Part shown: piece by piece, positions 1-7,420 of the stretch
Numbering within the stretch: the first letter of the stretch is position 1
Layout: each line of letters begins with the position of its first letter
From: Ruminococcus albus 7 = DSM 20455
Lineage (GTDB): Bacteria > Bacillota > Clostridia > Oscillospirales > Ruminococcaceae
NCBI RefSeq assembly: GCF_000179635.2
Contig: NC_014827.1
Coordinates: 1 to 7,420, forward strand
Length of the DNA stretch: 7,420 bases
Reading direction: 5' to 3'
Translations under genes and position numbers: made by a program
Notes under the pieces: model-generated
What the model was told of the DNA's origin: nothing
The model's input: only the letters and a program-made list of their open reading frames with translations
Database searches by the model: none

Positions 1-7
1 GTGGAGA

Positions 8-376
8 ATGTATATGCAGGAATTTGAAATAATATTTTATGAAAAGGCTGATGGGACAGAGCCGGCAAAGGATTTTATATTAAGTCTTGATACAAAGATG
101 AGAGCTAAAATGTTCAGAACAGTAGAGCTTCTTCAAAAAAACGGCAACAGATTAAGAGAACCGGAATCAAAGCCTATAGAAGACGGTATAATGGAGTTAA
201 GAGCAAAAGTAGGCTCGGATATATCTAGGGTCTTGTATTTCTTTGTAGTCGGACATAAAGTTGTTTTGACAAATGGCTTTATAAAGAAAACACAAAAAAC
301 ACCAAGGTCAGAGATTGAAAGAGCCAAACAGTACAGAGCTGATTATCTAAGCAGAAAGGAGAATGAAAATGACTAA
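8..376 (+). CDS. Type II toxin, RelE/HigB-like (phage Gp49-like/DUF891-type) mRNA interferase
   Basis: The 122-aa ORF has a family-typical layout: N-terminal EFEIIFYE..G..P.KDFL, then ELR.K.GSDI.RVLYFF..G..VVLTNGFIKKTQKTP..EIERA. It sits immediately upstream of, and overlaps, a small XRE-HTH gene. GGAG at 3-6 fits ATG 14 better than ATG 8, so the true start may be 14. Confidence 0.85.
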   Translation: MYMQEFEIIFYEKADGTEPAKDFILSLDTKMRAKMFRTVELLQKNGNRLREPESKPIEDGIMELRAKVGSDISRVLYFFVVGHKVVLTNGFIKKTQKTPRSEIERAKQYRADYLSRKENEND

Positions 377-641
377 TTTCAATGAACTTCTCGCAGAGCA
401 GATGAAAGATGATGAATTTCGTAGAGAATATGAAGCACTTGAACCAGAATTTACAATTATGCAGGCTATGATAGATGCTCGTAATTCAAGCGGACTTACG
501 CAGAAACAGCTTTCAGATCGTTCGGGTATAGCACAGGGTGATATAAGCAAGCTTGAAAACGGAAATGCTAATCCGTCAATAAGAACTTTACAACGGCTTG
601 CAAATGCTATGGGCAAAAAACTTAGGATAGAGTTTTTATAA
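363..641 (+). CDS. XRE-family helix-turn-helix antitoxin (HigA-like)
   Basis: The 92-aa ORF has an HTH core, GLTQKQLSDRSGIAQGDISKLENGNANPSIRTLQRLANAMG. It overlaps the toxin stop by 14 nt. AGGAG at 357-361 sits 7 nt before ATG 369, so the start is 363 or 369. Confidence 0.85.
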   Translation: MKMTNFNELLAEQMKDDEFRREYEALEPEFTIMQAMIDARNSSGLTQKQLSDRSGIAQGDISKLENGNANPSIRTLQRLANAMGKKLRIEFL

Positions 642-651
642 TAACAATTAT

Positions 652-697
652 AAAGACGGACTACCGCAGCAGCGGACAGTCCGTCTTTTTCTTTTTT
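652..697. terminator. Bidirectional rho-independent terminator between convergent genes
   Basis: Perfect 11-bp stem AAAGACGGACT (652-662) / AGTCCGTCTTT (678-688) with a 15-nt loop. A T-run follows on the plus strand. The A-rich left flank gives a U-rich tail for the minus-strand transcript. Confidence 0.75.
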
Positions 698-706
698 GTC
701 AGCCCA

Positions 707-991
707 TTATTCGGGCTTATTGTCGGGAAAATCATTCATAGCCTTGTTAAAGAAGCCGCCCCTCTGGTTCTGACCTTTGAGGAACGCAACAAGACGTTCG
801 ATATCACCATCTGCATACTCTCTGCCGAGTACGCTGTATACCGCACCGCCGATCTCTATCAAGTGCCGTGTGCGTTTTTTTCTTTCGTCCGCTGACTTCT
901 GTGCTTTCAGCTTTTTCTCTTGTGCTTTGAGCTGTTTCTGCTTTTCTTGCAGCTCAGCTATTCGTTCTTCATATGTCTTACTTTTTGACAT
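707..991 (-). CDS. DUF3847-like small coiled-coil protein (typical neighbour of MobQ relaxases; putative relaxosome accessory)
   Basis: The 94-aa ORF has an N-terminal Lys/Glu/Gln coiled coil (ELQEKQKQLKAQEKKLKAQ), then RKKRTRHLIEIGGAV...L. From memory this is the DUF3847 pattern. AAGAGG (complement of 1001-1006) lies 9 nt upstream of ATG 991. Confidence 0.75.
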   Translation of the reverse strand: MSKSKTYEERIAELQEKQKQLKAQEKKLKAQKSADERKKRTRHLIEIGGAVYSVLGREYADGDIERLVAFLKGQNQRGGFFNKAMNDFPDNKPE

Positions 992-1397
992 AATTTAATA
1001 CCTCTTTCCCTTTGTATTCAATAAAATCCAGCGCAACCATATCAGGCAAATAGGGTGGCTTTTTAAAACCTCTTTTGTTATATTTAGGCTTGTATTTCTG
1101 TATGTAATATCTCTCATAATCTGCAAGCGAATTTAGATTGGGTGTTTCTGCGCACATAATATAAGACACTTCTTCCCAAAATGGACTTTCTTCAATGTGC
1201 TTTGACATTCTATTTGCTATGTTTTGAGTGTGTCCAACGTAGATCACTATATTATTGTTATTATAGAACAAGTATATGTAAGGACTTCTATCATATAAAA
1301 TACAATTAGGCTCATAAATAATGTCATCAAGCCCAAGTGCCTTTATTCGATACCATTCTTTTAAAGCTTCTAATTGAAAATCTCTAAGCATATACAT
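978..1397 (-). CDS. GIY-YIG domain nuclease (small, free-standing)
   Basis: Motifs appear in order: YIYLF-(8 aa)-IYVGHT, an Arg in NRMSKH, then a Glu in YERYYIQKYKPKYN. This is the GIY..YIG..R..H..E..N layout. The track's TTG start at 1436 is actually the -35 hexamer of its own promoter. The real start is ATG 1397 or ATG 1391, with GGTGA just upstream. The 3' end overlaps the DUF3847-like gene by 14 nt. Confidence 0.75.
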   Translation of the reverse strand: MYMLRDFQLEALKEWYRIKALGLDDIIYEPNCILYDRSPYIYLFYNNNNIVIYVGHTQNIANRMSKHIEESPFWEEVSYIMCAETPNLNSLADYERYYIQKYKPKYNKRGFKKPPYLPDMVALDFIEYKGKEVLNYVKK

Positions 1398-1407
1398 CAC
1401 CAGTATA

Positions 1408-1436
1408 ATTTTATCATATATACATTGATTTGTCAA
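1408..1436 (-). promoter_or_regulatory. Sigma-A type promoter for the GIY-YIG/DUF3847 operon
   Basis: On the minus strand: TTGACA (1436-1431), a 17-nt spacer, then TAAAAT (1413-1408). The predicted TSS is only a few nt from the GGTGATG start region, so the leader is very short. Confidence 0.6.
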
Positions 1437-1443
1437 GTAGGTA

Positions 1444-1472
1444 TTGACAAACTAAGCGAAATTTGATATAAT
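1444..1472 (+). promoter_or_regulatory. Consensus extended -10 promoter for the relaxase operon
   Basis: TTGACA (1444-1449), a 17-nt spacer, then TATAAT (1467-1472), with TG at 1464-1465 (TGnTATAAT). Confidence 0.8.
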
Positions 1473-1480
1473 CATTTCTT

Positions 1481-1556
1481 AAGAGCGCAGCGAATAGAAA
1501 TGCGCACTTATACACCACATTCGCTACGCTCACATGGTGTATTTAAGTGCGCTCTC
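1481..1556 (+). other. oriT, MOBQ type, with predicted nic core TAAGTGCGCTCT
   Basis: TAAGTGCGCTCT (1544-1555) differs at one position from the MOBQ nic consensus TAAGTGCGCCCT of RSF1010/R1162, pIP501 and pGO1. It is preceded by IR arms TACACCA (1511-1517) / TGGTGTA (1535-1541). A longer IR spans 1502-1517 / 1535-1552 with a 2-nt bulge. Interleaved IRs are also present: AGCGAAT 1489-1495 / ATTCGCT 1519-1525, and AGAGCGCA 1482-1489 / TGCGCTCT 1548-1555. By analogy the nick falls at GTGCG|CTCT, about 1551/1552. Confidence 0.7.
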
Positions 1557-1620
1557 CGAGGGCAAGAGCGTTCCCCTCTTGACTTCCCTTTTTATTTTTC
1601 AGAGAAAGGAGTGTTGCCAA

Positions 1621-3027
1621 ATGGCAATCTATCATTGCAGTATTAAGATAGGCAGCAGAGCAAACGGACAAAGCGCAATAGCCGCAGCAGCGTATCGAGC
1701 AGGTGACAATCTGAAAGATAAAGAAACTGGTTTAGTGTCCGACTACTCCCGAAAGGGCGGCGTTGTGTTTTCCGAAATCTCGTTGTGCCAAAACGCTCCT
1801 GCCGAATATGCCGACAGGGCTACTCTTTGGAACGCAGTTCACGAAATCGAGAAAGCCAAAAACTCACAGTTGTGGCGTGAGTTTGAGGTGGCACTTCCGC
1901 AGGAGTTTAGCCGAGCCGAACAGATAGACACAGTTCGTGGATTTGTCAAAGGCTTGACCAAGCAAGGAATGTGTGTGGATTGGAGCTTGCACGATAAAGA
2001 GGACGGAAACCCACACGCTCATATCATGGCTACTATGCGGAGCATAACCGAGGGCGGCAAATGGGCACCCAAGAGCCGCAAGGTGTATGACCTTGACGAG
2101 AACGGCGAGCGCATTTTTCAAAAAGTCGATAAGTCGGGGCGCAAGCAGTACAAGAACCACAAAGAAGATTACAACGATTGGAACAAGAAAGAGCGTGTCG
2201 AGGAATGGAGAGCTGCGTGGGCTGCTTGCTGCAATGAAAGGCTTGCCGAGCGTGATCGGATAGATCACCGCAGCTATAAACGGCAGGGCATAGAGCAAGA
2301 GCCGACTATCCATGAGGGATATGCAGCAAGGAAAATCGCAGCCGAGGGTAAGCCCTCGGAGCGTGTTCGCATAAATGAAGAAATCCGAGAGAGAAATAAT
2401 ATGCTGAAACAGCTTGCCGAGCAGCTGCACCACATCGAACAGCAGCTTGCCGAGCTTATCAAGGAGAAAGGAAGTGCAGCGATCAATGCAGGAAAACAAC
2501 GAATTGCAGACCTACTCGCCCGAAGAAGTCGAGCAGTTGATAGCGATGACCGAGGACTTGCAGACGGAGAACGAACAACAGAGAGCCGAACTGAACGAAC
2601 TACGGCAACAGAAGCAGACCGCCTTATCAGAGAATCAGAAGCTGAAAGACGAGCTGCACTCCGCAATGTTGGACTTGAAGAAAGTGGAAGGACAGCACAA
2701 GGAAACGAGAAAAAAGCTGAACACTCTGCTACACGGTTACAACCCACAGAACAACCAGACACAGCAGCAATCTTCGGAGCTGCGGACAGCCTTATCCAAG
2801 ATACAGACACTAACCAAGAAGCTGTCAGAGCAGCAACGGCAGACACAGACAGTACTATCCGACAATCAGAAACTAAGGTCACAAGTGCAGCAGCTCACCG
2901 CCAAGAACGAGAGCTTGCAGAGCAGCGACGAGCAGCTGAAGAACGCCGAAGAGCTGAAGAAGCAGAGCGCAAGGCAAGAGCAGCAAGCGAAAGAGCGAGA
3001 AAGACGAGCTACGATAGAGGCAGATAG
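1621..3027 (+). CDS. MobA/MobL (MOBQ) family relaxase; the C-terminal ~180 codons are doubtful
   Basis: AGGAG at 1607-1611 lies 9 nt before ATG 1621. The N-terminus MAIYHCSIKIGSRANGQSAIAAAAYRAG parallels RSF1010 MobA (MAIYHLTAKTGSR...), with the candidate catalytic Tyr at residue 25 (codon 1693-1695). The His-triad motif HDKEDGNPHAHIM is at about 1990-2028. The track start at 1534 lies inside oriT and has no RBS. The frame stays open to TAG 3025-3027, but only through a T-poor tract where every frame is open. Confidence 0.85.
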   Translation: MAIYHCSIKIGSRANGQSAIAAAAYRAGDNLKDKETGLVSDYSRKGGVVFSEISLCQNAPAEYADRATLWNAVHEIEKAKNSQLWREFEVALPQEFSRAEQIDTVRGFVKGLTKQGMCVDWSLHDKEDGNPHAHIMATMRSITEGGKWAPKSRKVYDLDENGERIFQKVDKSGRKQYKNHKEDYNDWNKKERVEEWRAAWAACCNERLAERDRIDHRSYKRQGIEQEPTIHEGYAARKIAAEGKPSERVRINEEIRERNNMLKQLAEQLHHIEQQLAELIKEKGSAAINAGKQRIADLLARRSRAVDSDDRGLADGERTTESRTERTTATEADRLIRESEAERRAALRNVGLEESGRTAQGNEKKAEHSATRLQPTEQPDTAAIFGAADSLIQDTDTNQEAVRAATADTDSTIRQSETKVTSAAAHRQERELAEQRRAAEERRRAEEAERKARAASERARKTSYDRGR

Positions 3028-3667
3028 GGCTAGACGAGAAGCAGCCGCAGCAATCGCAAGAGCCGAGCAAAAAGAAGAAGCGGCGATAATAGCCAAGAAC
3101 GCAGCGGAACATACCAAGCAGCAGCAGGAAAGTATCATCAAAGAGAAAGCAGAAGCCTTAAACAGGCAATATCAGGTGGAATGGAACGTTATTGGTGTTG
3201 CCCTTATCGTGTATAGCTTATTTGCTACCGTGTTCACCGCCATTAAGTCAAAACGCTGTATGTCTGATATTACCGCAGCAGGAAAGCTAATAGTTAAAAT
3301 CGCAAAGGGAATAGTTCATGTGATAACTGCCCTTGCAAGCCGTGTCGGAAGTGTCGGAGCGAAAATCCCACAGCCCATAGTGTCCACGATCGTGAGCTAT
3401 TTGCTAATGGCACTTATTACAGCGATATGTGTTGTTGTTATCCTTGCACCCTTGTATTTGGGCATTAAAGCTATTTCAAACTGCTATACGCTGCATTGTT
3501 GGGACGAGGTAAGTCCATTGGTTGCCCTGGTCTGCCTTGCAGTTCTTGTGTGGGGAGCTGAACTCATGCCGTTGAACATCGTGCTGCTGATGATACTTTC
3601 ACACGCAGCATACATCGTTGTCCGTTGGTACATAGATGGTTGGAGAGAGGCAAGAGGACTAGCATAA
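2486..3667 (+). CDS. Gln/Glu/Lys-rich coiled-coil protein with polytopic membrane C-terminal domain (function unknown)
   Basis: The SD-like AGAAAGGAAGTG (2465-2476) precedes ATG 2486. About 230 aa are heptad-like coiled coil with a duplicated motif: QTALSENQKLK (2615-2647) and QTVLSDNQKLR (2846-2878). Four to five hydrophobic helices follow from about 3181 (VIGVALIVYSLFATVFTAI; IVSTIVSYLLMALITAICVVVILAPLYLGI; LVALVCLAVLVWGA; LNIVLLMILSHAAYIVV). Confidence 0.7.
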   Translation: MQENNELQTYSPEEVEQLIAMTEDLQTENEQQRAELNELRQQKQTALSENQKLKDELHSAMLDLKKVEGQHKETRKKLNTLLHGYNPQNNQTQQQSSELRTALSKIQTLTKKLSEQQRQTQTVLSDNQKLRSQVQQLTAKNESLQSSDEQLKNAEELKKQSARQEQQAKERERRATIEADRARREAAAAIARAEQKEEAAIIAKNAAEHTKQQQESIIKEKAEALNRQYQVEWNVIGVALIVYSLFATVFTAIKSKRCMSDITAAGKLIVKIAKGIVHVITALASRVGSVGAKIPQPIVSTIVSYLLMALITAICVVVILAPLYLGIKAISNCYTLHCWDEVSPLVALVCLAVLVWGAELMPLNIVLLMILSHAAYIVVRWYIDGWREARGLA

Positions 3668-3688
3668 TGCCCTCAGAAGCCACCGTAA

Positions 3689-3759
3689 GCCACACAGAGC
3701 CACGCTAATCTTAATAATATAGAATCACCCCTTACACTCTTGAAACGCCACACAGAGCC
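3689..3759. repeat. 13-bp direct repeat GCCACACAGAGCC (3689-3701 and 3747-3759) in an intergenic region
   Basis: Both copies are exact. CTCAGAA is also duplicated (3672-3678 and 3761-3767). AATGCCCTC (3666-3674) can pair with GAGGGGCATT (3773-3782), which is followed by T5. Confidence 0.6.
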
Positions 3760-3868
3760 GCTCAGAACGTGCGAGGGGCATTTTTACAGCCTTTTTCTCG
3801 CGGAGATAGAAATGTATTGGTGAAGTTGGTACTATAAACATTTAATTGAAAGCGTCACAAAATCAGTA

Positions 3869-3897
3869 TTGACAAATGGAGATTTATGTGCTATACT
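3869..3897 (+). promoter_or_regulatory. Strong extended -10 promoter upstream of the replication module
   Basis: TTGACA (3869-3874), a 17-nt spacer, then TATACT (3892-3897), with TG at 3889-3890. It shares the context GTATTGACAAA with the relaxase promoter (1441-1451 vs 3866-3876). Confidence 0.7.
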
Positions 3898-3904
3898 GAA
3901 AAAA

Positions 3905-4019
3905 AGGTAAAAAAACTTATTGATAATCTAAGCCCCTTATACCGTAGGTATTCTGAGGGGGCTGACAGAGTAGGTAAAAAAACTTATTGATAATCTAAGC
4001 CCCTTATACCGTAGGTATT
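3905..4019. repeat. Two perfect 48-bp direct repeats (3905-3952 and 3972-4019), period 67 bp
   Basis: AGGTAAAAAAACTTATTGATAATCTAAGCCCCTTATACCGTAGGTATT occurs twice without mismatch. The copies are separated by 19 nt (CTGAGGGGGCTGACAGAGT). The first copy starts about 8 nt after the -10 box. Confidence 0.95.
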
Positions 4020-4042
4020 GAGCGTGAGCGTGTGTGGGGCGG

Positions 4043-4099
4043 TTCTTCTTTCTTTTGGTTCTTTTCTTTCTTCTCCAAGAAAAGAAGAAAGAAAAGAAC
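4043..4099. repeat. Homopyrimidine mirror repeat plus perfect 17-bp homopyrimidine/homopurine hairpin
   Basis: Mirror repeat: TCTTCTTTCTTTT (4044-4056) / TTTTCTTTCTTCT (4062-4074). Hairpin: GTTCTTTTCTTTCTTCT (4058-4074) pairs perfectly with AGAAGAAAGAAAAGAAC (4083-4099), with an 8-nt loop CCAAGAAA. Confidence 0.9.
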
Positions 4100-4137
4100 G
4101 TTACCCGCAGTAATGATGTTATATCCGCATAAGTGAG

Positions 4138-5556
4138 GTGTTCTGCTTGTCCGATAATGTATTGAATAACTTCCGTGAGTGCTATGAGCTGCTTTCCAAC
4201 GTGTACGATCAGGTCAATGGCGAGGACTTCTATCGTTATATCTTCCCCGACAACGAGAACTCTGGTGAGCTGTCCAGCGATTTTTCTCACCCTAACGCTA
4301 TTTATCTGTATCACGATGAACAGGACGAGGGTGCAAAAAGGCGTTTACGCCGCAGGATAATGCTCAATGATACGTGGGCTTCTGATTATATGGACTATGT
4401 TGAGGGGAACGGCATGACTTTGTGCAGCGGTCTGACTTATCATAGCCGCAGCAACAAGCTCCAGTATGCTCAGACCATGAACGCACTCATTTTTGACCTT
4501 GACGGTGTCGGGCGTTCTGAATTGGAGCACGTTTTGGAGCGTACAACAGGTTCGGGCGATGTTTACCGCAGTATTCCTAAGCCGACTTTCATTGTTTTGA
4601 GTGGGCGAGGGCTTCACTTGTACTATGTTTTTGATGAGCCTATCGCCCTTTATCCCAACATAAAGCTGCAATTGAAGTCCTTGAAACACGATCTCACATT
4701 CAGAATATGGGAGTATAAAGGCACTTCGCAGGTCGAGAGTATTCAGTATCAGAGCATCGGTCAAGGTTTCCGTATGGTCGGCAGCACTAACAGCAAGTAT
4801 GGGAATACCGTCACTGCCTTTAAAATCGGCGGTAAAGTCAGCCTTGATTTCCTCAATAGCTATGCTATTAAGCCCGAAAATCGGGTTGATGTTAACCGTC
4901 CGTACCGCCCGAGCAAAATTGACCGAGCAACCGCAGCGGAGCTTTATCCCGAATGGTATCAGAAAGTTGTTGTTGAGGGCAACAAACGCCCTAACAAGTG
5001 GAATATCGGCTATCGTAAGAAGAAGCAAGTCAAAGACTATGCTCTTTATGAGTGGTGGAAACGCCGTGTGACCGAGATTGAGGGCGGACACCGTTATTTT
5101 TACCTTATGTGCCTTGTAATATACGCCTGCAAGTGTGATGTACCGAAAAAACAGCTCAAAGTCGATATTCAGGCGTGTTTTGAAGTCCTTCGTGCTTATA
5201 AACACAATAACGAGCTGACACAAGATGATGTTGATAGTGCTATGGAGTGCTATTCAAAGGATTATTATAATTTCACGATAGCTGATATCGAGATCTTGAC
5301 CGATGTTCGTATCGAGCGTAATAAGCGGAACTATCAAAAGCAGGAGTGGCATTTGGAAGATATCCGAAGTAAAAAGGCAAATATGAAACGTAGAGGTCAG
5401 CCTTTTAGAAATGCCGAGGGCAGACCAAGTAAGCAGCAGATCGTACTTGAATGGCAGCAGCTGCACCCTATGGGGCGCAAAGTTGATTGTATCAGAGATA
5501 CTGGTTTGTCAAAGCCTACCGTTCTCAAATGGTGGCGAAAGGAGTTTGAAGCATGA
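4138..5556 (+). CDS. Replication protein with AEP-type primase-polymerase (Prim-Pol) core, PriCT-like region and C-terminal HTH
   Basis: AEP-like motifs: ALIFDLDGV (DxD), LSGRGLHLYYVF (sGxGxH) and GFRMVGSTNSKYG (R.xGS.N.K). EGGHRYFYLMCLVIYACKCDV resembles PriCT. The C-terminal GRPSKQQIVLEW...GLSKPTVLKWW resembles a resolvase/Hin-type HTH. The start is uncertain: GTG 4138 overlaps its own GAGG, whereas TTG 4147 sits 6 nt after GAGGTG (4135-4140). Confidence 0.75.
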   Translation: MFCLSDNVLNNFRECYELLSNVYDQVNGEDFYRYIFPDNENSGELSSDFSHPNAIYLYHDEQDEGAKRRLRRRIMLNDTWASDYMDYVEGNGMTLCSGLTYHSRSNKLQYAQTMNALIFDLDGVGRSELEHVLERTTGSGDVYRSIPKPTFIVLSGRGLHLYYVFDEPIALYPNIKLQLKSLKHDLTFRIWEYKGTSQVESIQYQSIGQGFRMVGSTNSKYGNTVTAFKIGGKVSLDFLNSYAIKPENRVDVNRPYRPSKIDRATAAELYPEWYQKVVVEGNKRPNKWNIGYRKKKQVKDYALYEWWKRRVTEIEGGHRYFYLMCLVIYACKCDVPKKQLKVDIQACFEVLRAYKHNNELTQDDVDSAMECYSKDYYNFTIADIEILTDVRIERNKRNYQKQEWHLEDIRSKKANMKRRGQPFRNAEGRPSKQQIVLEWQQLHPMGRKVDCIRDTGLSKPTVLKWWRKEFEA

Positions 5557-6104
5557 GCAAAACCATAAAGCAGATCGCTGACGAGCTGGGCGTGAGCAAA
5601 GACCGAGTAAAGTATCTAGTGAAAAAATTACCCAGTGGGTGGGTAGAAAAACGGGGAAATATTACCTACATAAATGCTGATGGTGAACGGAATATCTATA
5701 TGCTAGAGGGAAAAAAGTGGGGAAAATCTGACGAAATTACCCATATTGAAACCGAACTTGATCGGGTAATTTCTACCCACTTACCCACCGAAGAACAGAA
5801 GAAAGATATGGAAATTGAGAGGTTAAAAGCTAGGGTTGCAGAACTTGAACGCCAATTAGAATATGAAAGGGCTAATTCCGAAGAGAAACAAGCTCTTTTG
5901 AAAGCGTGGAATGATGAACAGATACAGCAATTTAATCGCATAATTGAGGATAATAAAAAATTATTACAGCTTATAGACCAAGAACAGCAGCTGCATTTAC
6001 GTTCGATTGAGAGTAAAGATAAAGGTCTTGCTATCGAGGAAAAGCAGCCCGAACCTAAGCGGCATTGGTGGCAGCGTAAACGAAAGGAGCCGACCGAGGA
6101 ATGA
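5553..6104 (+). CDS. HTH plus coiled-coil protein (DUF536-like plasmid replication-associated type)
   Basis: ATGA stop/start overlap with the upstream gene. GGAG at 5541-5544 lies 8 nt upstream. N-terminal HTH: TIKQIADELGVSKDRVKYLVKKL. The C-terminal coiled coil ends in LLQLIDQEQQLHL, which from memory resembles the DUF536 signature. Confidence 0.7.
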   Translation: MSKTIKQIADELGVSKDRVKYLVKKLPSGWVEKRGNITYINADGERNIYMLEGKKWGKSDEITHIETELDRVISTHLPTEEQKKDMEIERLKARVAELERQLEYERANSEEKQALLKAWNDEQIQQFNRIIEDNKKLLQLIDQEQQLHLRSIESKDKGLAIEEKQPEPKRHWWQRKRKEPTEE

Positions 6105-6307
6105 ACGAGCCGACAAAAAAGAAGAAAGGCGGAGCGAGGGCAGGAGCAGGCGCAAAGCCAAAATACGGCTGCAAGACCGTGACAATGCGTGTTCCTGCTG
6201 ATATGGTGGACGAAATCAGGGCTTTTATCTGCAAGAAAAAACATATCGAGCCGAAGCCTGAGCCTGAACAAGAGCTAGAGGGGCAAGTTTCCTTTAGCGA
6301 TATATAA
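6101..6307 (+). CDS. Small basic ribbon-helix-helix-like DNA-binding protein
   Basis: ATGA overlap with the upstream gene. The 68-aa product has a Lys/Gly-rich N-terminal tail (KKKKGGARAGAGAKPKYG). TVTMRVPADMVDEIRAFI fits a beta-strand/helix RHH pattern. The assignment is by pattern only. Confidence 0.55.
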   Translation: MNEPTKKKKGGARAGAGAKPKYGCKTVTMRVPADMVDEIRAFICKKKHIEPKPEPEQELEGQVSFSDI

Positions 6308-6319
6308 GGAGGACTAACA

Positions 6320-6718
6320 ATGGATATCAAGTTTTACAATGAAGAACACCAAAAGGCATTTTACAGCATTTGTAAGCGAATGAAACACCTTGACTGCTAC
6401 CATTTTTCGCTTGCGTATCTTCTTTCTCTCGATAAGGTACTTCGTGAACATACCGATGAAGTATTCGACTTCAAAGAGGACTGTATAAAACGTGAGGGGC
6501 TGCACAAAGGCTTTCAGACAGGCACTTCGATGAAAACAACACGCCTTGCCTTTAACCTTTGGAATGGCTGCTATGATGACGGTGAAACCTACACGAATAA
6601 GGACGGCTATGAAACGGAGCTGCCGAGCAGCTACTACTCGCCCGATCAGATCTTCTGCTGCAAGGACTATGCACCGTACTACTGGCAGGCTATTCGGATC
6701 CGTTTTGAATTGAATTAG
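6320..6718 (+). CDS. Uncharacterised conserved protein, DUF6075-like
   Basis: AAGGAGG at 6306-6312 lies 7 nt before ATG 6320. The 132-aa product has features I recall from the DUF6075 family of Firmicutes mobile elements: N-terminal F.NE.H...F, D.YH...AYLLS, W..G, and FCC..YAPYYWQAIRIRF at the C-terminus. Confidence 0.65.
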   Translation: MDIKFYNEEHQKAFYSICKRMKHLDCYHFSLAYLLSLDKVLREHTDEVFDFKEDCIKREGLHKGFQTGTSMKTTRLAFNLWNGCYDDGETYTNKDGYETELPSSYYSPDQIFCCKDYAPYYWQAIRIRFELN

Positions 6719-6725
6719 TATAGAA

Positions 6726-6755
6726 AAAAGGCGAAACAATAACGTTTCGCCTTTT
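6726..6755. terminator. Bidirectional rho-independent terminator
   Basis: AAAAGGCGAAAC (6726-6737) / GTTTCGCCTTTT (6744-6755) is a perfect 12-bp stem with a 6-nt loop. Its outer 4 bp come from the flanking A-run and T-run. Confidence 0.85.
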
Positions 6756-6757
6756 GA

Positions 6758-6988
6758 TCATTGTTCGATATTACTTTTTTTGACTAAAATCCAATCACAA
6801 GGAAATATATGTTTTTTGTCTGCTTTATAAACTAGTATTAAAACAAATATCCATATATGTTTGGTTTTTACTACGTTATTATTTCCTAAAGAGTCCCTTA
6901 TGATCATTGCAGAGGGTCCATCCTTAGAATTAAATATATCTTGCTGTTGTATGTGTTTTAGAATATAATTTTTTTCTTGTAATTTCAT
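6758..6988 (-). CDS. Hypothetical small protein (weak call)
   Basis: Internal ATG at 6988 gives MKLQEKNYIL..., 76 aa, with one hydrophobic stretch (HIWIFVLILVY). No SD, and only 2 nt after the upstream stop. AT-rich. No recognisable domain. Confidence 0.3.
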   Translation of the reverse strand: MKLQEKNYILKHIQQQDIFNSKDGPSAMIIRDSLGNNNVVKTKHIWIFVLILVYKADKKHIFPCDWILVKKSNIEQ

Positions 6989-6990
6989 TA

Positions 6991-7233
6991 TTAAAGTTTT
7001 ACCGTTGAGCTGGCGTTTCCTAAGTAAGCCTTTCCGCCTGCAATAGTTGTAATGTAGACGTTTTTCCAACCAACCTTTACTTTCTTGGTGTTTTTCGGAA
7101 TTGAAAATGATTTTGTAGAGCCATTTGCCTTGTTATATCTTCCATTAAGGTCTTTGTATTCATCTATTCTGCCTGAAAAATAACTTTTGGGTTTTAATAT
7201 TGATGTGTTACTGCAGTATATTGTTCCAGACAC
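6991..7233 (-). CDS. Hypothetical beta-rich ORF, possibly a 5'-truncated gene remnant (weak call)
   Basis: The only start is GTG 7233, with no SD. The same frame is open upstream to about 7405 without any ATG. A promoter-like element lies at 7283-7311. Confidence 0.3.
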   Translation of the reverse strand: MSGTIYCSNTSILKPKSYFSGRIDEYKDLNGRYNKANGSTKSFSIPKNTKKVKVGWKNVYITTIAGGKAYLGNASSTVKL

Positions 7234-7282
7234 ATTGGTTATCTGTGTTCCTGTTGCGCTCCAATAGAGATGAGCTTTATCT

Positions 7283-7311
7283 ATTATATCACTTTTTTGA
7301 GTGATTGTAAA
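7283..7311 (-). promoter_or_regulatory. Candidate extended -10 promoter reading leftwards
   Basis: On the minus strand: TTTACA (7311-7306), a 17-nt spacer, then TATAAT (7288-7283), with TG at 7291-7290. The region carries the inverted repeat ATCACT/AGTGAT (7288-7293 / 7300-7305); the distal arm lies in the spacer and the proximal arm overlaps the last base of the -10. Confidence 0.5.
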
Positions 7312-7362
7312 AACAGAAATAACACTTTGTATTTGTAATTTGTGAATTTTTCTCCAATAGCA

Positions 7363-7391
7363 TTGACAATATAGGATTTATCCTATATAAT
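7363..7391 (+). promoter_or_regulatory. Consensus promoter reading out of the right end of the window
   Basis: TTGACA (7363-7368), a 17-nt spacer, then TATAAT (7386-7391). The target gene is outside the window. Confidence 0.6.
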
Positions 7392-7414
7392 TAATTATAG
7401 GATAAATCCTATAA
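7369..7414. promoter_or_regulatory. Two 20-bp palindromic operator-like sites
   Basis: ATATAGGAT-TT-ATCCTATAT (7369-7388) fills the -35/-10 spacer. TTATAGGAT-AA-ATCCTATAA (7395-7414) covers the predicted TSS. The centres are 26 bp apart and are joined by the palindromic AATTAATT. Confidence 0.8.
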
Positions 7415-7420
7415 TTTGAT

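Follow-up and report, generated by a model that had tools for sequence, protein, structure and literature searches.

It has been described for RSF1010, the MOBQ prototype, that mobB lies inside mobA in another reading frame (PMC2200642), and for RSF1010/R1162 the open reading frames (ORFs) have been summarized in the words 'mobB and repB ORFs ... overlap mobA' (PMC5572225). The title of Parker & Meyer 2007 (cited in PMC3297438) states that the type IV transport signals of the relaxase require MobB. In ColE1-type plasmids two ORFs overlap mobA entirely and one partly, MbeB belonging to the relaxosome and MbeD being a putative entry-exclusion protein (PMC5935869), so that a membrane-related function encoded within a relaxase gene has precedent. 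The C. difficile metronidazole-resistance plasmid pCD-METRO carries an ORF4 that has been described only as hypothetical (PMC6992631). In this study we analyzed a stretch of 7,420 nucleotides (nt) from Ruminococcus albus 7 = DSM 20455 (contig NC_014827.1, positions 1 to 7,420, hereafter the window), in which the 3' part of a MobQ relaxase gene overlaps, over 542 nt and in another frame, a downstream gene for a protein with a coiled coil and a DUF6040 membrane domain. The comparisons described below suggest that both frames are very probably translated and functional and that the shared DNA is an evolutionarily maintained dual-coding region.

The arrangement in the window resembles that of RSF1010/R1162 in that an accessory gene, here a putative mobilization gene, occupies the 3' part of the relaxase gene in another frame, and in that the relaxase belongs to the same MobQ family. 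It differs in that mobB is small and fully nested whereas the partner in the window has 393 amino acids (aa), runs 640 nt past the relaxase gene and has a polytopic DUF6040 domain without detectable similarity to characterized families. It also differs in being found in Clostridia and not in Proteobacteria, and in having a relaxase without a primase domain. Out-of-frame accessory genes overlap the relaxase gene in the ColE1-type mbeA/mbeB/mbeD (mobA/mobB/mobD) systems as well, but there the relaxase is of clade MOBHEN and the genes are small, nested and without sequence relation to the window gene, and to our knowledge a coiled-coil/membrane architecture has not been reported for them. The arrangement is akin to the known nested mob genes but lies outside their families, with a large, polytopic partner that extends past the relaxase gene; an ORF with start signals of its own does lie in the other frame of the relaxase gene, and the overlap is partial, not nested. 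The original prediction, which was made from the letters of the window alone, had called such an arrangement unusual for a MOBQ relaxase, and this is overstated because RSF1010 already has mobB inside mobA in the other frame (PMC2200642).

The likeness to pCD-METRO ORF3/ORF4 is closer in the partner gene than in the catalytic part of the relaxase. The DUF6040 partner is shared and aligns from window residue 87 (E 6e-29), the two genes overlap in the +1 relation by 335 nt (GGAGG, 9 nt, GTG 1682; relaxase stop 2016), and the relaxase C-termini are 42 % identical over 55 aa, ending SYDxGR. Unlike the relaxase of the window, which is MobA_MobL, that of pCD-METRO is PF03432 (MobA/VirD2-like), and in the RefSeq annotation of pCD-METRO the overlap is only 23 nt.

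The two overlapping genes

The relaxase has 468 aa when read from ATG 1621 (MAIYHCS...), which is the likely and conserved start, and the ORF coordinates confirmed that its frame stays open to the TAG at 3025-3027, as had been predicted. The protein scored 223.2 bits against the NCBIfam MobQ profile NF041496 (cut-off 200), which places it in MOBQ by score, and 276.7 bits against Pfam PF03389 MobA_MobL (cut-off 26.7, E 2e-82). Y4, H124, D125, N130, P131, H132 and H134 are invariant among 44 homologues, and the motif I tyrosine and the motif III histidines are therefore present; the definitions of motif I and of the three-histidine motif III are those summarized in PMC12857230. The catalytic domain (aa 1-~240) leads into a long helix (aa 247-303), beyond which lies the tail, and in the AlphaFold model the helices 247-303 and 395-467 are accompanied by two low-confidence linkers. 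The tail is rich in A, R, E and T, and the prediction that it is packed with CGA codons was borne out, as CGA accounts for 13 of its 30 Arg codons compared to 4 of 23 in the N-terminal part. Its third codon positions are skewed (A 52 %, G 9 %), and its C-terminus is basic (...RKTSYDRGR), with 8 K+R against 3 D+E in the last 20 aa.

The second frame begins at ATG 2486 behind the extended Shine-Dalgarno (SD) sequence AGAAAGGAAGTG at 2465-2476, both as predicted, and, since (2486-1621) mod 3 = 1, it is +1 to the relaxase frame; the overlap, measured at 542 nt, agrees with the roughly 540 nt of the original prediction. The 393-aa product matched Pfam PF19506 (DUF6040) with 110 bits against a threshold of 23.4 (E 1.6e-31), profile positions 9-232 of 233 covering aa 168-391. 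In its AlphaFold model, helices 12-81 and 98-254 are followed by membrane helices 256-288, 297-338, 343-356 and 365-389, which together with the hydrophobic segments agrees with the four to five transmembrane helices foreseen behind the coiled coil. Scans of this protein against Pfam and NCBIfam (E <=0.01) gave only DUF6040 and coiled-coil noise and no MobB, MbeB or MbeD, Foldseek with the DUF6040 model retrieved no PDB entry at E <=0.001, and the term 'DUF6040' was not mentioned in a full-text literature search. Both copies of the predicted duplicated motif QT(A/V)LS(E/D)NQKL(K/R) were located (nt 2615-2647 and 2846-2878), and their DNA is 74 % identical across 35 nt. Short-form homologues carry a single copy of the motif, and what sets the long overlap forms (497-542 nt) apart from the short ones (290-359 nt) is an internally duplicated segment of about 80 codons, which both frames can read through.

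The DUF6040-like family is large, with 628 clusters at 50 % identity, and its N-terminal MQENNEL... module also heads proteins with other membrane domains (P0146, P0147, P0149). The 393-aa protein of the window is absent from a collection of 5.8 billion proteins, the best match there being 85 % identical, while the 468-aa relaxase was found in the protein database to be identical on 20 contigs. This suggests that the downstream gene was not called in the source records.

Conservation of the frame relation and of the start signals

From genomes and metagenomes 64 related loci were fetched. A DUF6040-like gene in a separate frame is present in 26 of them, and in 26 of these 26 it is +1 to the relaxase, with overlaps of 290-533 nt past the downstream ATG, although identity to the window ranges from 53 to 88 % for the relaxase and from 27 to 85 % for the downstream protein. 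Six further loci, namely five annotated plasmids and L069, are also +1, and all overlaps lie between 281 and 635 nt. The partner gene is directly downstream of the relaxase gene and co-oriented with it in all 26 loci and in L069-L074. The longest overlap, 635 nt, is that of L069, whose 549-aa protein (360-2009) has the MQENNEL N-terminus and a far longer coiled coil, and whose multi-pass membrane domain is of another kind and has no Pfam match. The annotated plasmids with the complete gene are C. difficile pCD-METRO, a Waltera intestinalis plasmid, an M. gnavus plasmid, the uncultured-bacterium plasmid pRGI00363 and an A. rectalis megaplasmid. A megablast of the locus against PLSDB gave no match.

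This recurrence bears on the suggestion in the original prediction that a 1-nt indel or assembly error had split one ancestral ORF. Such an error, which has nothing but its formal possibility in its favor, can be regarded as next to impossible, because the same +1 relation and long overlap recur in 32 loci from isolates, complete plasmids and metagenomes of many studies, and because the relaxase is identical on 20 contigs. The sole in-frame relaxase-DUF6040 fusion, L035, was considered as a possible ancestral form and rejected: it is a single contig and a deletion derivative in which, relative to L007, ...ADTTAS is joined to DLQAFCG.... It had also been stated that a relaxase stop early in close homologues would count against an overlapping pair. 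Only P0119 and P0064 have such a short relaxase, and neither is a refuting case, the former being a decayed chromosomal remnant beside a split integrase and the latter differing in its C-terminus and lying on a contig that stops about 130 nt past the gene; no DUF6040-linked locus has an early stop.

The start signals of the downstream gene are conserved along with the frame relation. The SD is kept in nearly all lineages, and its spacing to the ATG is fixed at 6 nt, or 9 nt in the window lineage. In the window, AGAAAGGAAGTG is complementary in 11 of 12 positions to the 3' end of the Firmicute 16S rRNA, and GAGAAAGGAAGTG is the conserved form of the SD, at the distance of a ribosome-binding site from an invariant ATG. 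In the relaxase frame the same nucleotides give the invariant residues K23, G24 and N29 (numbering of alignment A1), of which N29 is the AAT-G codon that holds the ATG of the other frame. A TAA stands immediately 5' of the ATG in 13 of 27 sequences. An in-frame GTG at 2474, 7 nt past AAGGAG, is an alternative start, and a gene caller chose it in the relative P0121 (MQRSMQENNEL); if GTG 2474 is used, the overlap in the window lineage could be 554 nt.

The start signals also decide against a programmed +1 frameshift at AAG GAG AAA G (2461-2470), which had been proposed as the source of a fusion protein with the junction ...LIKEKEVQRSMQ... (the product would have ~680 aa, ~75 kDa) and which we regard as highly improbable. 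What recommends it is a likeness to prfB-type +1 frameshifting, namely an SD-like hexamer immediately 5' of AAA, a codon able to re-pair in +1, together with a +1 frame that is open from 2408 in the window lineage, so that a fusion is formally possible, and the in-frame fusion encoded by L035. However, in 13 of 27 sequences a ribosome shifting at the proposed site would run into the TAA ahead of the ATG and give no fusion, and L035 is explained by its deletion relative to L007. The AAGGAG hexamer is not conserved and the codon before it varies, whereas GAGAAAGGAAGTG is conserved instead. Unlike in prfB-type sites, the zero frame meets no stop, slow codon or pause signal here, and it continues through a further 180 codons that frameshifting would not need. 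The region is unstructured as well: the RNA fold of 2440-2600 is less stable than that of shuffled sequence (z +1.17), which lends no support to a frameshift stimulator or to a cis-acting RNA as the reason for the conservation, and nothing in the window matched Rfam at gathering thresholds.

A reading in which only the relaxase frame is functional over most of the overlap, and in which DUF6040 starts near the relaxase stop as in PGAP and other annotations, is suggested by the deposited records but is very unlikely indeed. In four of the five plasmids (pCD-METRO, pRGI00363, M. gnavus and A. rectalis) the deposited DUF6040 gene begins only 23-92 nt ahead of the relaxase stop (in the Waltera record both genes are left unannotated), the Pfam model of DUF6040 begins only at aa 168 of the window protein, and representatives of 205-265 aa are common. 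Yet no SD precedes these annotated starts. The first start of each +1 ORF, 281-485 nt before the relaxase stop, does have one (GGAGG, GGGGGAG, AGGGGG or AAGGA) at a distance of 6-10 nt. Across lineages the ATG and SD are kept, with a stop immediately before the ATG in 13 of 27 sequences. In the window no late start is at hand, since there is no ATG from 2666 to the relaxase stop and no start codon of any kind between TTG 2915 and GTG 3176, which is inside the first membrane helix. The similarity between proteins covers the N-terminal extension, as in the alignment of the window with pCD-METRO from aa 87 and in tblastn matches upstream of the annotated starts, and many family members 310-400 aa long align with the profile from its N-terminal end. 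Finally, the downstream frame has no stop in 16 lineages, and the probability that it would be open given the relaxase tail and normal codon usage is <=0.04. The 233-position Pfam model of DUF6040 therefore probably reflects truncated gene calls.

Stop codons, codon choice and synonymous change in the overlap

The overlap is T-poor, and whether it could be open by chance was tested by the stops per frame, codon choice, resampling and the stops at its borders. Over 16 lineages the relaxase frame and the downstream frame have 0 stops each in the overlap, whereas there are 199 in the third sense frame and 53, 30 and 118 in the antisense frames. Antisense ORFs in the overlap (e.g. 2274-2882, minus strand) were rejected as by-products of composition, as they contain stops in other lineages. 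Codons of the downstream frame that end in T make up 101 of 1998 (5.1 %) in the overlap but 142 of 750 (18.9 %) in the next 50 codons (Fisher P 1e-26), and this depletion is specific to the codon position because overall T content is similar on either side of the relaxase stop. A stop in the relaxase frame arises where a T-ending downstream codon precedes a codon starting with AA, AG or GA, as about 40 % of codons do. None of the 101 T-ending codons in the overlap stands before such a codon, compared to 62 of the 142 after it.

When synonymous codons were resampled from the usage of the non-overlapping part with the downstream protein held fixed, the relaxase frame was open in 0 of 1000 cases at 18 of 18 loci. 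When codons were permuted only inside the overlap, P was 0.001-0.10 across loci, the relaxase frame of the window being open in 4.7 % of cases. In the reverse resampling, with the relaxase tail fixed, the downstream frame was open at P <=0.04. The borders behave likewise: past its stop the relaxase frame gains 2-8 stops in 150 nt in most lineages, and stops of the downstream frame are dense upstream of the downstream ATG. Compared to the neighboring stretch of each gene that codes in a single frame, the overlap shows only about 0.2-0.5 of the rate of synonymous change, when substitutions that are synonymous in one of its frames are counted. At least 5 pairs (L019-L023, L001-L024, L007-L008, L007-L037 and window-L019) behave in this way, with ratios of about 0.2-0.4 for relaxase-synonymous and 0.3-0.5 for downstream-synonymous changes.

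The opposite reading, that only the DUF6040 frame is functional, that the relaxase ends near aa 285-300 and that its 180-codon tail is a by-product of T-poor coiled-coil coding, could draw on the abnormal third positions and CGA excess of the tail, on a relaxase-frame NN/SN ratio of about 1, on the short relaxases that are known and on the rarity of T-ending codons past the overlap in the window lineage. It is nevertheless very unlikely in view of the results above, since in the same T-poor DNA the relaxase frame has 0 stops in 16 lineages where the four unused frames have 30-199, since none of the 101 T-ending codons of the overlap is followed by AA, AG or GA, as 62 of 142 just downstream are, since resampling gave 0 of 1000 at every locus and since downstream-synonymous changes are roughly halved in the overlap. 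Moreover, the relaxases of the different lineages end at corresponding positions, and a basic ...G-R terminus recurs among them. The relaxases P0048 and P0061 (652 and 641 aa) have the same tail, from which the frame continues into a further domain of ~230 aa; that P0048 reads the tail through in this way also speaks for the tail as protein-coding sequence.

Several observations do weigh against both frames being maintained. In the single-coding flanks the nonsynonymous/synonymous-type ratio is 0.1-0.8 for the real frame and 0.9-1.8 for a fictitious shifted frame, but in the overlap NN/SN of the relaxase frame is ~0.8-1.6 compared to 1.2-1.8 for the fictitious frame, which indicates weak selection on the amino acids of the tail. 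The downstream frame is only moderately constrained there (0.57-1.0), somewhat more strongly than the relaxase frame. Inside the overlap NN/SN and NN/NS are weak signals that are biased in controls (0.9-1.8 for the fictitious frame), and for this reason we rely on the stop and codon-choice statistics and on the synonymous rates of the flanks. The flank comparisons are themselves unclean, because recombination makes the middle of the overlap a mosaic, and the pair of the window and L015 shows the reversed result for synonymous rates. In the window lineage T-ending codons stay rare (8 %) for 50 codons beyond the overlap, and with this weak contrast and a permutation P of 0.047 for the window itself it is the comparative data that carry the case. 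The tail is dispensable for the catalytic core, as relaxases of only 270-293 aa exist, and the codon-usage likelihood is equal for both frames and does not indicate which is older. As to the check proposed in the original prediction, of synonymous and nonsynonymous patterns in each frame, synonymous change is suppressed in both frames, whereas selection on the amino acids of the relaxase tail is weak.

That both frames are kept as coding sequence very probably holds in spite of these points. What the comparisons have in common is that both frames are open, that the start signals are retained and that synonymous change is suppressed, and this is general for relaxase-DUF6040 pairs. The genuine overlapping pair that was one of the original readings is thus upheld by the 32 loci, the stop statistics, the conserved SD and ATG and the suppressed synonymous change in both frames. 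In bacteria a long overlap between genes on the same strand is usually an error of annotation, and a well-supported, conserved overlap of 280-635 nt is a useful natural case of dual coding. Public records, including that of the clinically relevant pCD-METRO, probably miss 70-160 N-terminal residues of the DUF6040 protein, and the boundary of the Pfam DUF6040 domain probably misses the N-terminal part as well.

A recombining middle and a possible role of the overlap

Conservation within the overlap is uneven. The best conserved block of the locus, 2461-2580, is 91-97 % identical in nucleotides to L019 and 78-86 % to L002 against 45-80 % in the flanks. Identity to L019 is again 91-97 % in 2761-3000, compared to 60-80 % in its flanks, and jumps at the borders of the overlap. 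Between these parts, in 2581-2820, identity to L015 drops to 44-67 % and gaps amount to 36 nt, against 92-100 % identity in the remaining locus; these figures apply to L015-L018. This middle cassette is a patchwork, in that the right half of the window version matches the L019 type and the L015 version matches the L001 type, which suggests recombination or diversifying exchange inside the dual-coding region.

In the proposed mechanism, expression would proceed as follows. A single transcript from the promoter at 1444-1472 would carry both genes, each of which has a conserved ribosome-binding site. Initiation at ATG 1621 would give the MobQ relaxase, whose last 180 residues would form a partly disordered linker, an Arg/Glu/Ala-rich helix and a basic C-terminus, and independent initiation inside the relaxase ORF at the SD 2465-2476 and ATG 2486, in the +1 frame, would give a separate 393-aa protein that begins with a coiled coil and continues into the polytopic DUF6040 membrane domain. 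By analogy with the known mob systems, the membrane protein may be an accessory factor of mobilization that brings the relaxase-DNA complex to the membrane or to a coupling protein, and the basic tail of the relaxase may serve in recognition or transport. The shared DNA may keep both partners together when modules recombine.

A more specific and rather doubtful idea is that the overlap is a portable docking module, in which the relaxase tail and the DUF6040 coiled coil bind each other or jointly bind the coupling protein of a helper conjugation system. This would explain why the overlap is found with two relaxase families (MobA_MobL and MobA/VirD2-like), why no part of the locus is better conserved than its first 120 nt and why its middle is hypervariable and recombines, in which case the cassette may set specificity. 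If so, the relaxase-DNA complex would be tethered to the membrane and the partners would be inherited and exchanged as a unit. The gene structure matters for mobilization because the DUF6040 family is large and lies beside relaxases on small mobilizable plasmids of Clostridia from gut and rumen, and some of the mobilizable plasmids with DUF6040 carry resistance.

Other features of the window and of related loci

The coordinates are collected in Table 1. The promoter at 1444-1472 is likely to drive the relaxase/DUF6040 transcript, judging from its match to the consensus. No other promoter-like site above 9/12 was found on the plus strand before 3869, and none lies ahead of the internal start; a terminator-like site was looked for between the relaxase and DUF6040 genes and none was found. 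Beside this promoter is a divergent one (1436-1408, minus strand, 11/12 matches). Between the promoter and the SD of the relaxase, and preceded by inverted repeats, lies the motif TAAGTGCGCTCT, a candidate nick region that resembles the RSF1010-type nic consensus.

Table 1. Features of the relaxase-DUF6040 locus in the window, and overlaps in annotated plasmids (plasmid positions are those of the respective sequence)
Feature	Position	Strand	Remarks
Predicted sigma-70-type promoter, TTGACA-17-TATAAT with TG	1444..1472	+	12/12 matches
oriT-like nick-region motif TAAGTGCGCTCT	1544..1555	+	inverted repeats precede
SD of the relaxase gene, AGAAAGGAGTG	1603..1613	+	7 nt upstream of ATG 1621
MobQ relaxase gene	1621..3027	+	468 aa; stop TAG 3025-3027; ORF 1534..3027
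Most conserved block of the locus	2461..2580	+	SD, ATG, relaxase INAGKQRIADLLARR...DGER, downstream MQENNELxxYSPEEVEQL...TENEQ
Internal extended SD, AGAAAGGAAGTG	2465..2476	+	serves the downstream gene
Gene for coiled-coil and DUF6040 membrane protein	2486..3667	+	393 aa; +1 frame; frame open from 2408
Overlap, probable dual-coding region	2486..3027	+	542 nt; relaxase aa 289-468 with downstream aa 1-180
Hypervariable mosaic middle of the overlap	2581..2820	+	holds motif copy 1 and low-confidence linkers
Duplicated motif, copy 1, QTALSENQKLK	2615..2647	+	relaxase frame ...DRLIRESEAE
Relaxase C-terminal helix, Arg/Glu/Ala-rich	2803..3024	+	aa 395-467; AlphaFold pLDDT up to 90
Duplicated motif, copy 2, QTVLSDNQKLR	2846..2878	+	relaxase frame ...DSTIRQSETK
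Predicted membrane-spanning helices of DUF6040	3176..3634	+	hydrophobic segments aa 231-383
Overlap in L070 (pCD-METRO, NZ_OM972905)	1682-2016
Overlap in L072	1965-2308
Overlap in L073	1444-1928
Overlap in L074	2405-2685

Downstream of the pair, the window encodes at 4138-5556 a 472-aa protein without a Pfam match that is 35 % identical to 'repA' of pCD-METRO and likewise to its counterpart on the Waltera plasmid, and that has a weak primase-polymerase-like match to ligD_pol. The relaxase-DUF6040-Rep backbone is syntenic with that of pCD-METRO despite the differing catalytic domains of the relaxases.

Among the related loci, L065 (3840-4274) and likewise L066 have an open, fully nested +1 ORF of 144 aa (MQENNELPTYSTEE...) in the relaxase gene and no DUF6040 gene, an arrangement like that of mobB in RSF1010; the relaxase of L065, with 652 aa, retains the tail, and the ~230-aa C-terminal domain that is added to the relaxase in these two loci is uncharacterized. 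In Ruminococcus sp. YE78 (L068, 2949-4819 of a 99.7-kb contig) a truncated relaxase of 272 aa, 84 % identical to that of the window, lies beside an integrase split into 184 and 122 aa, and from this layout the locus looks like a decaying integrated mobilizable element.

On the minus strand of the window, divergent from the relaxase gene, are a gene for a weakly DUF3847-like protein of 94 aa (707-991) and one for a 152-aa protein with a GIY-YIG nuclease domain (978-1436); a DUF3847 gene is also upstream of the relaxase gene in L065 and L066. At the start of the window a gene for a Gp49/HigB-like toxin (8-376) overlaps by 14 nt a gene for a helix-turn-helix antitoxin (363-641), and judged by its sequence this pair looks like a plasmid addiction module.

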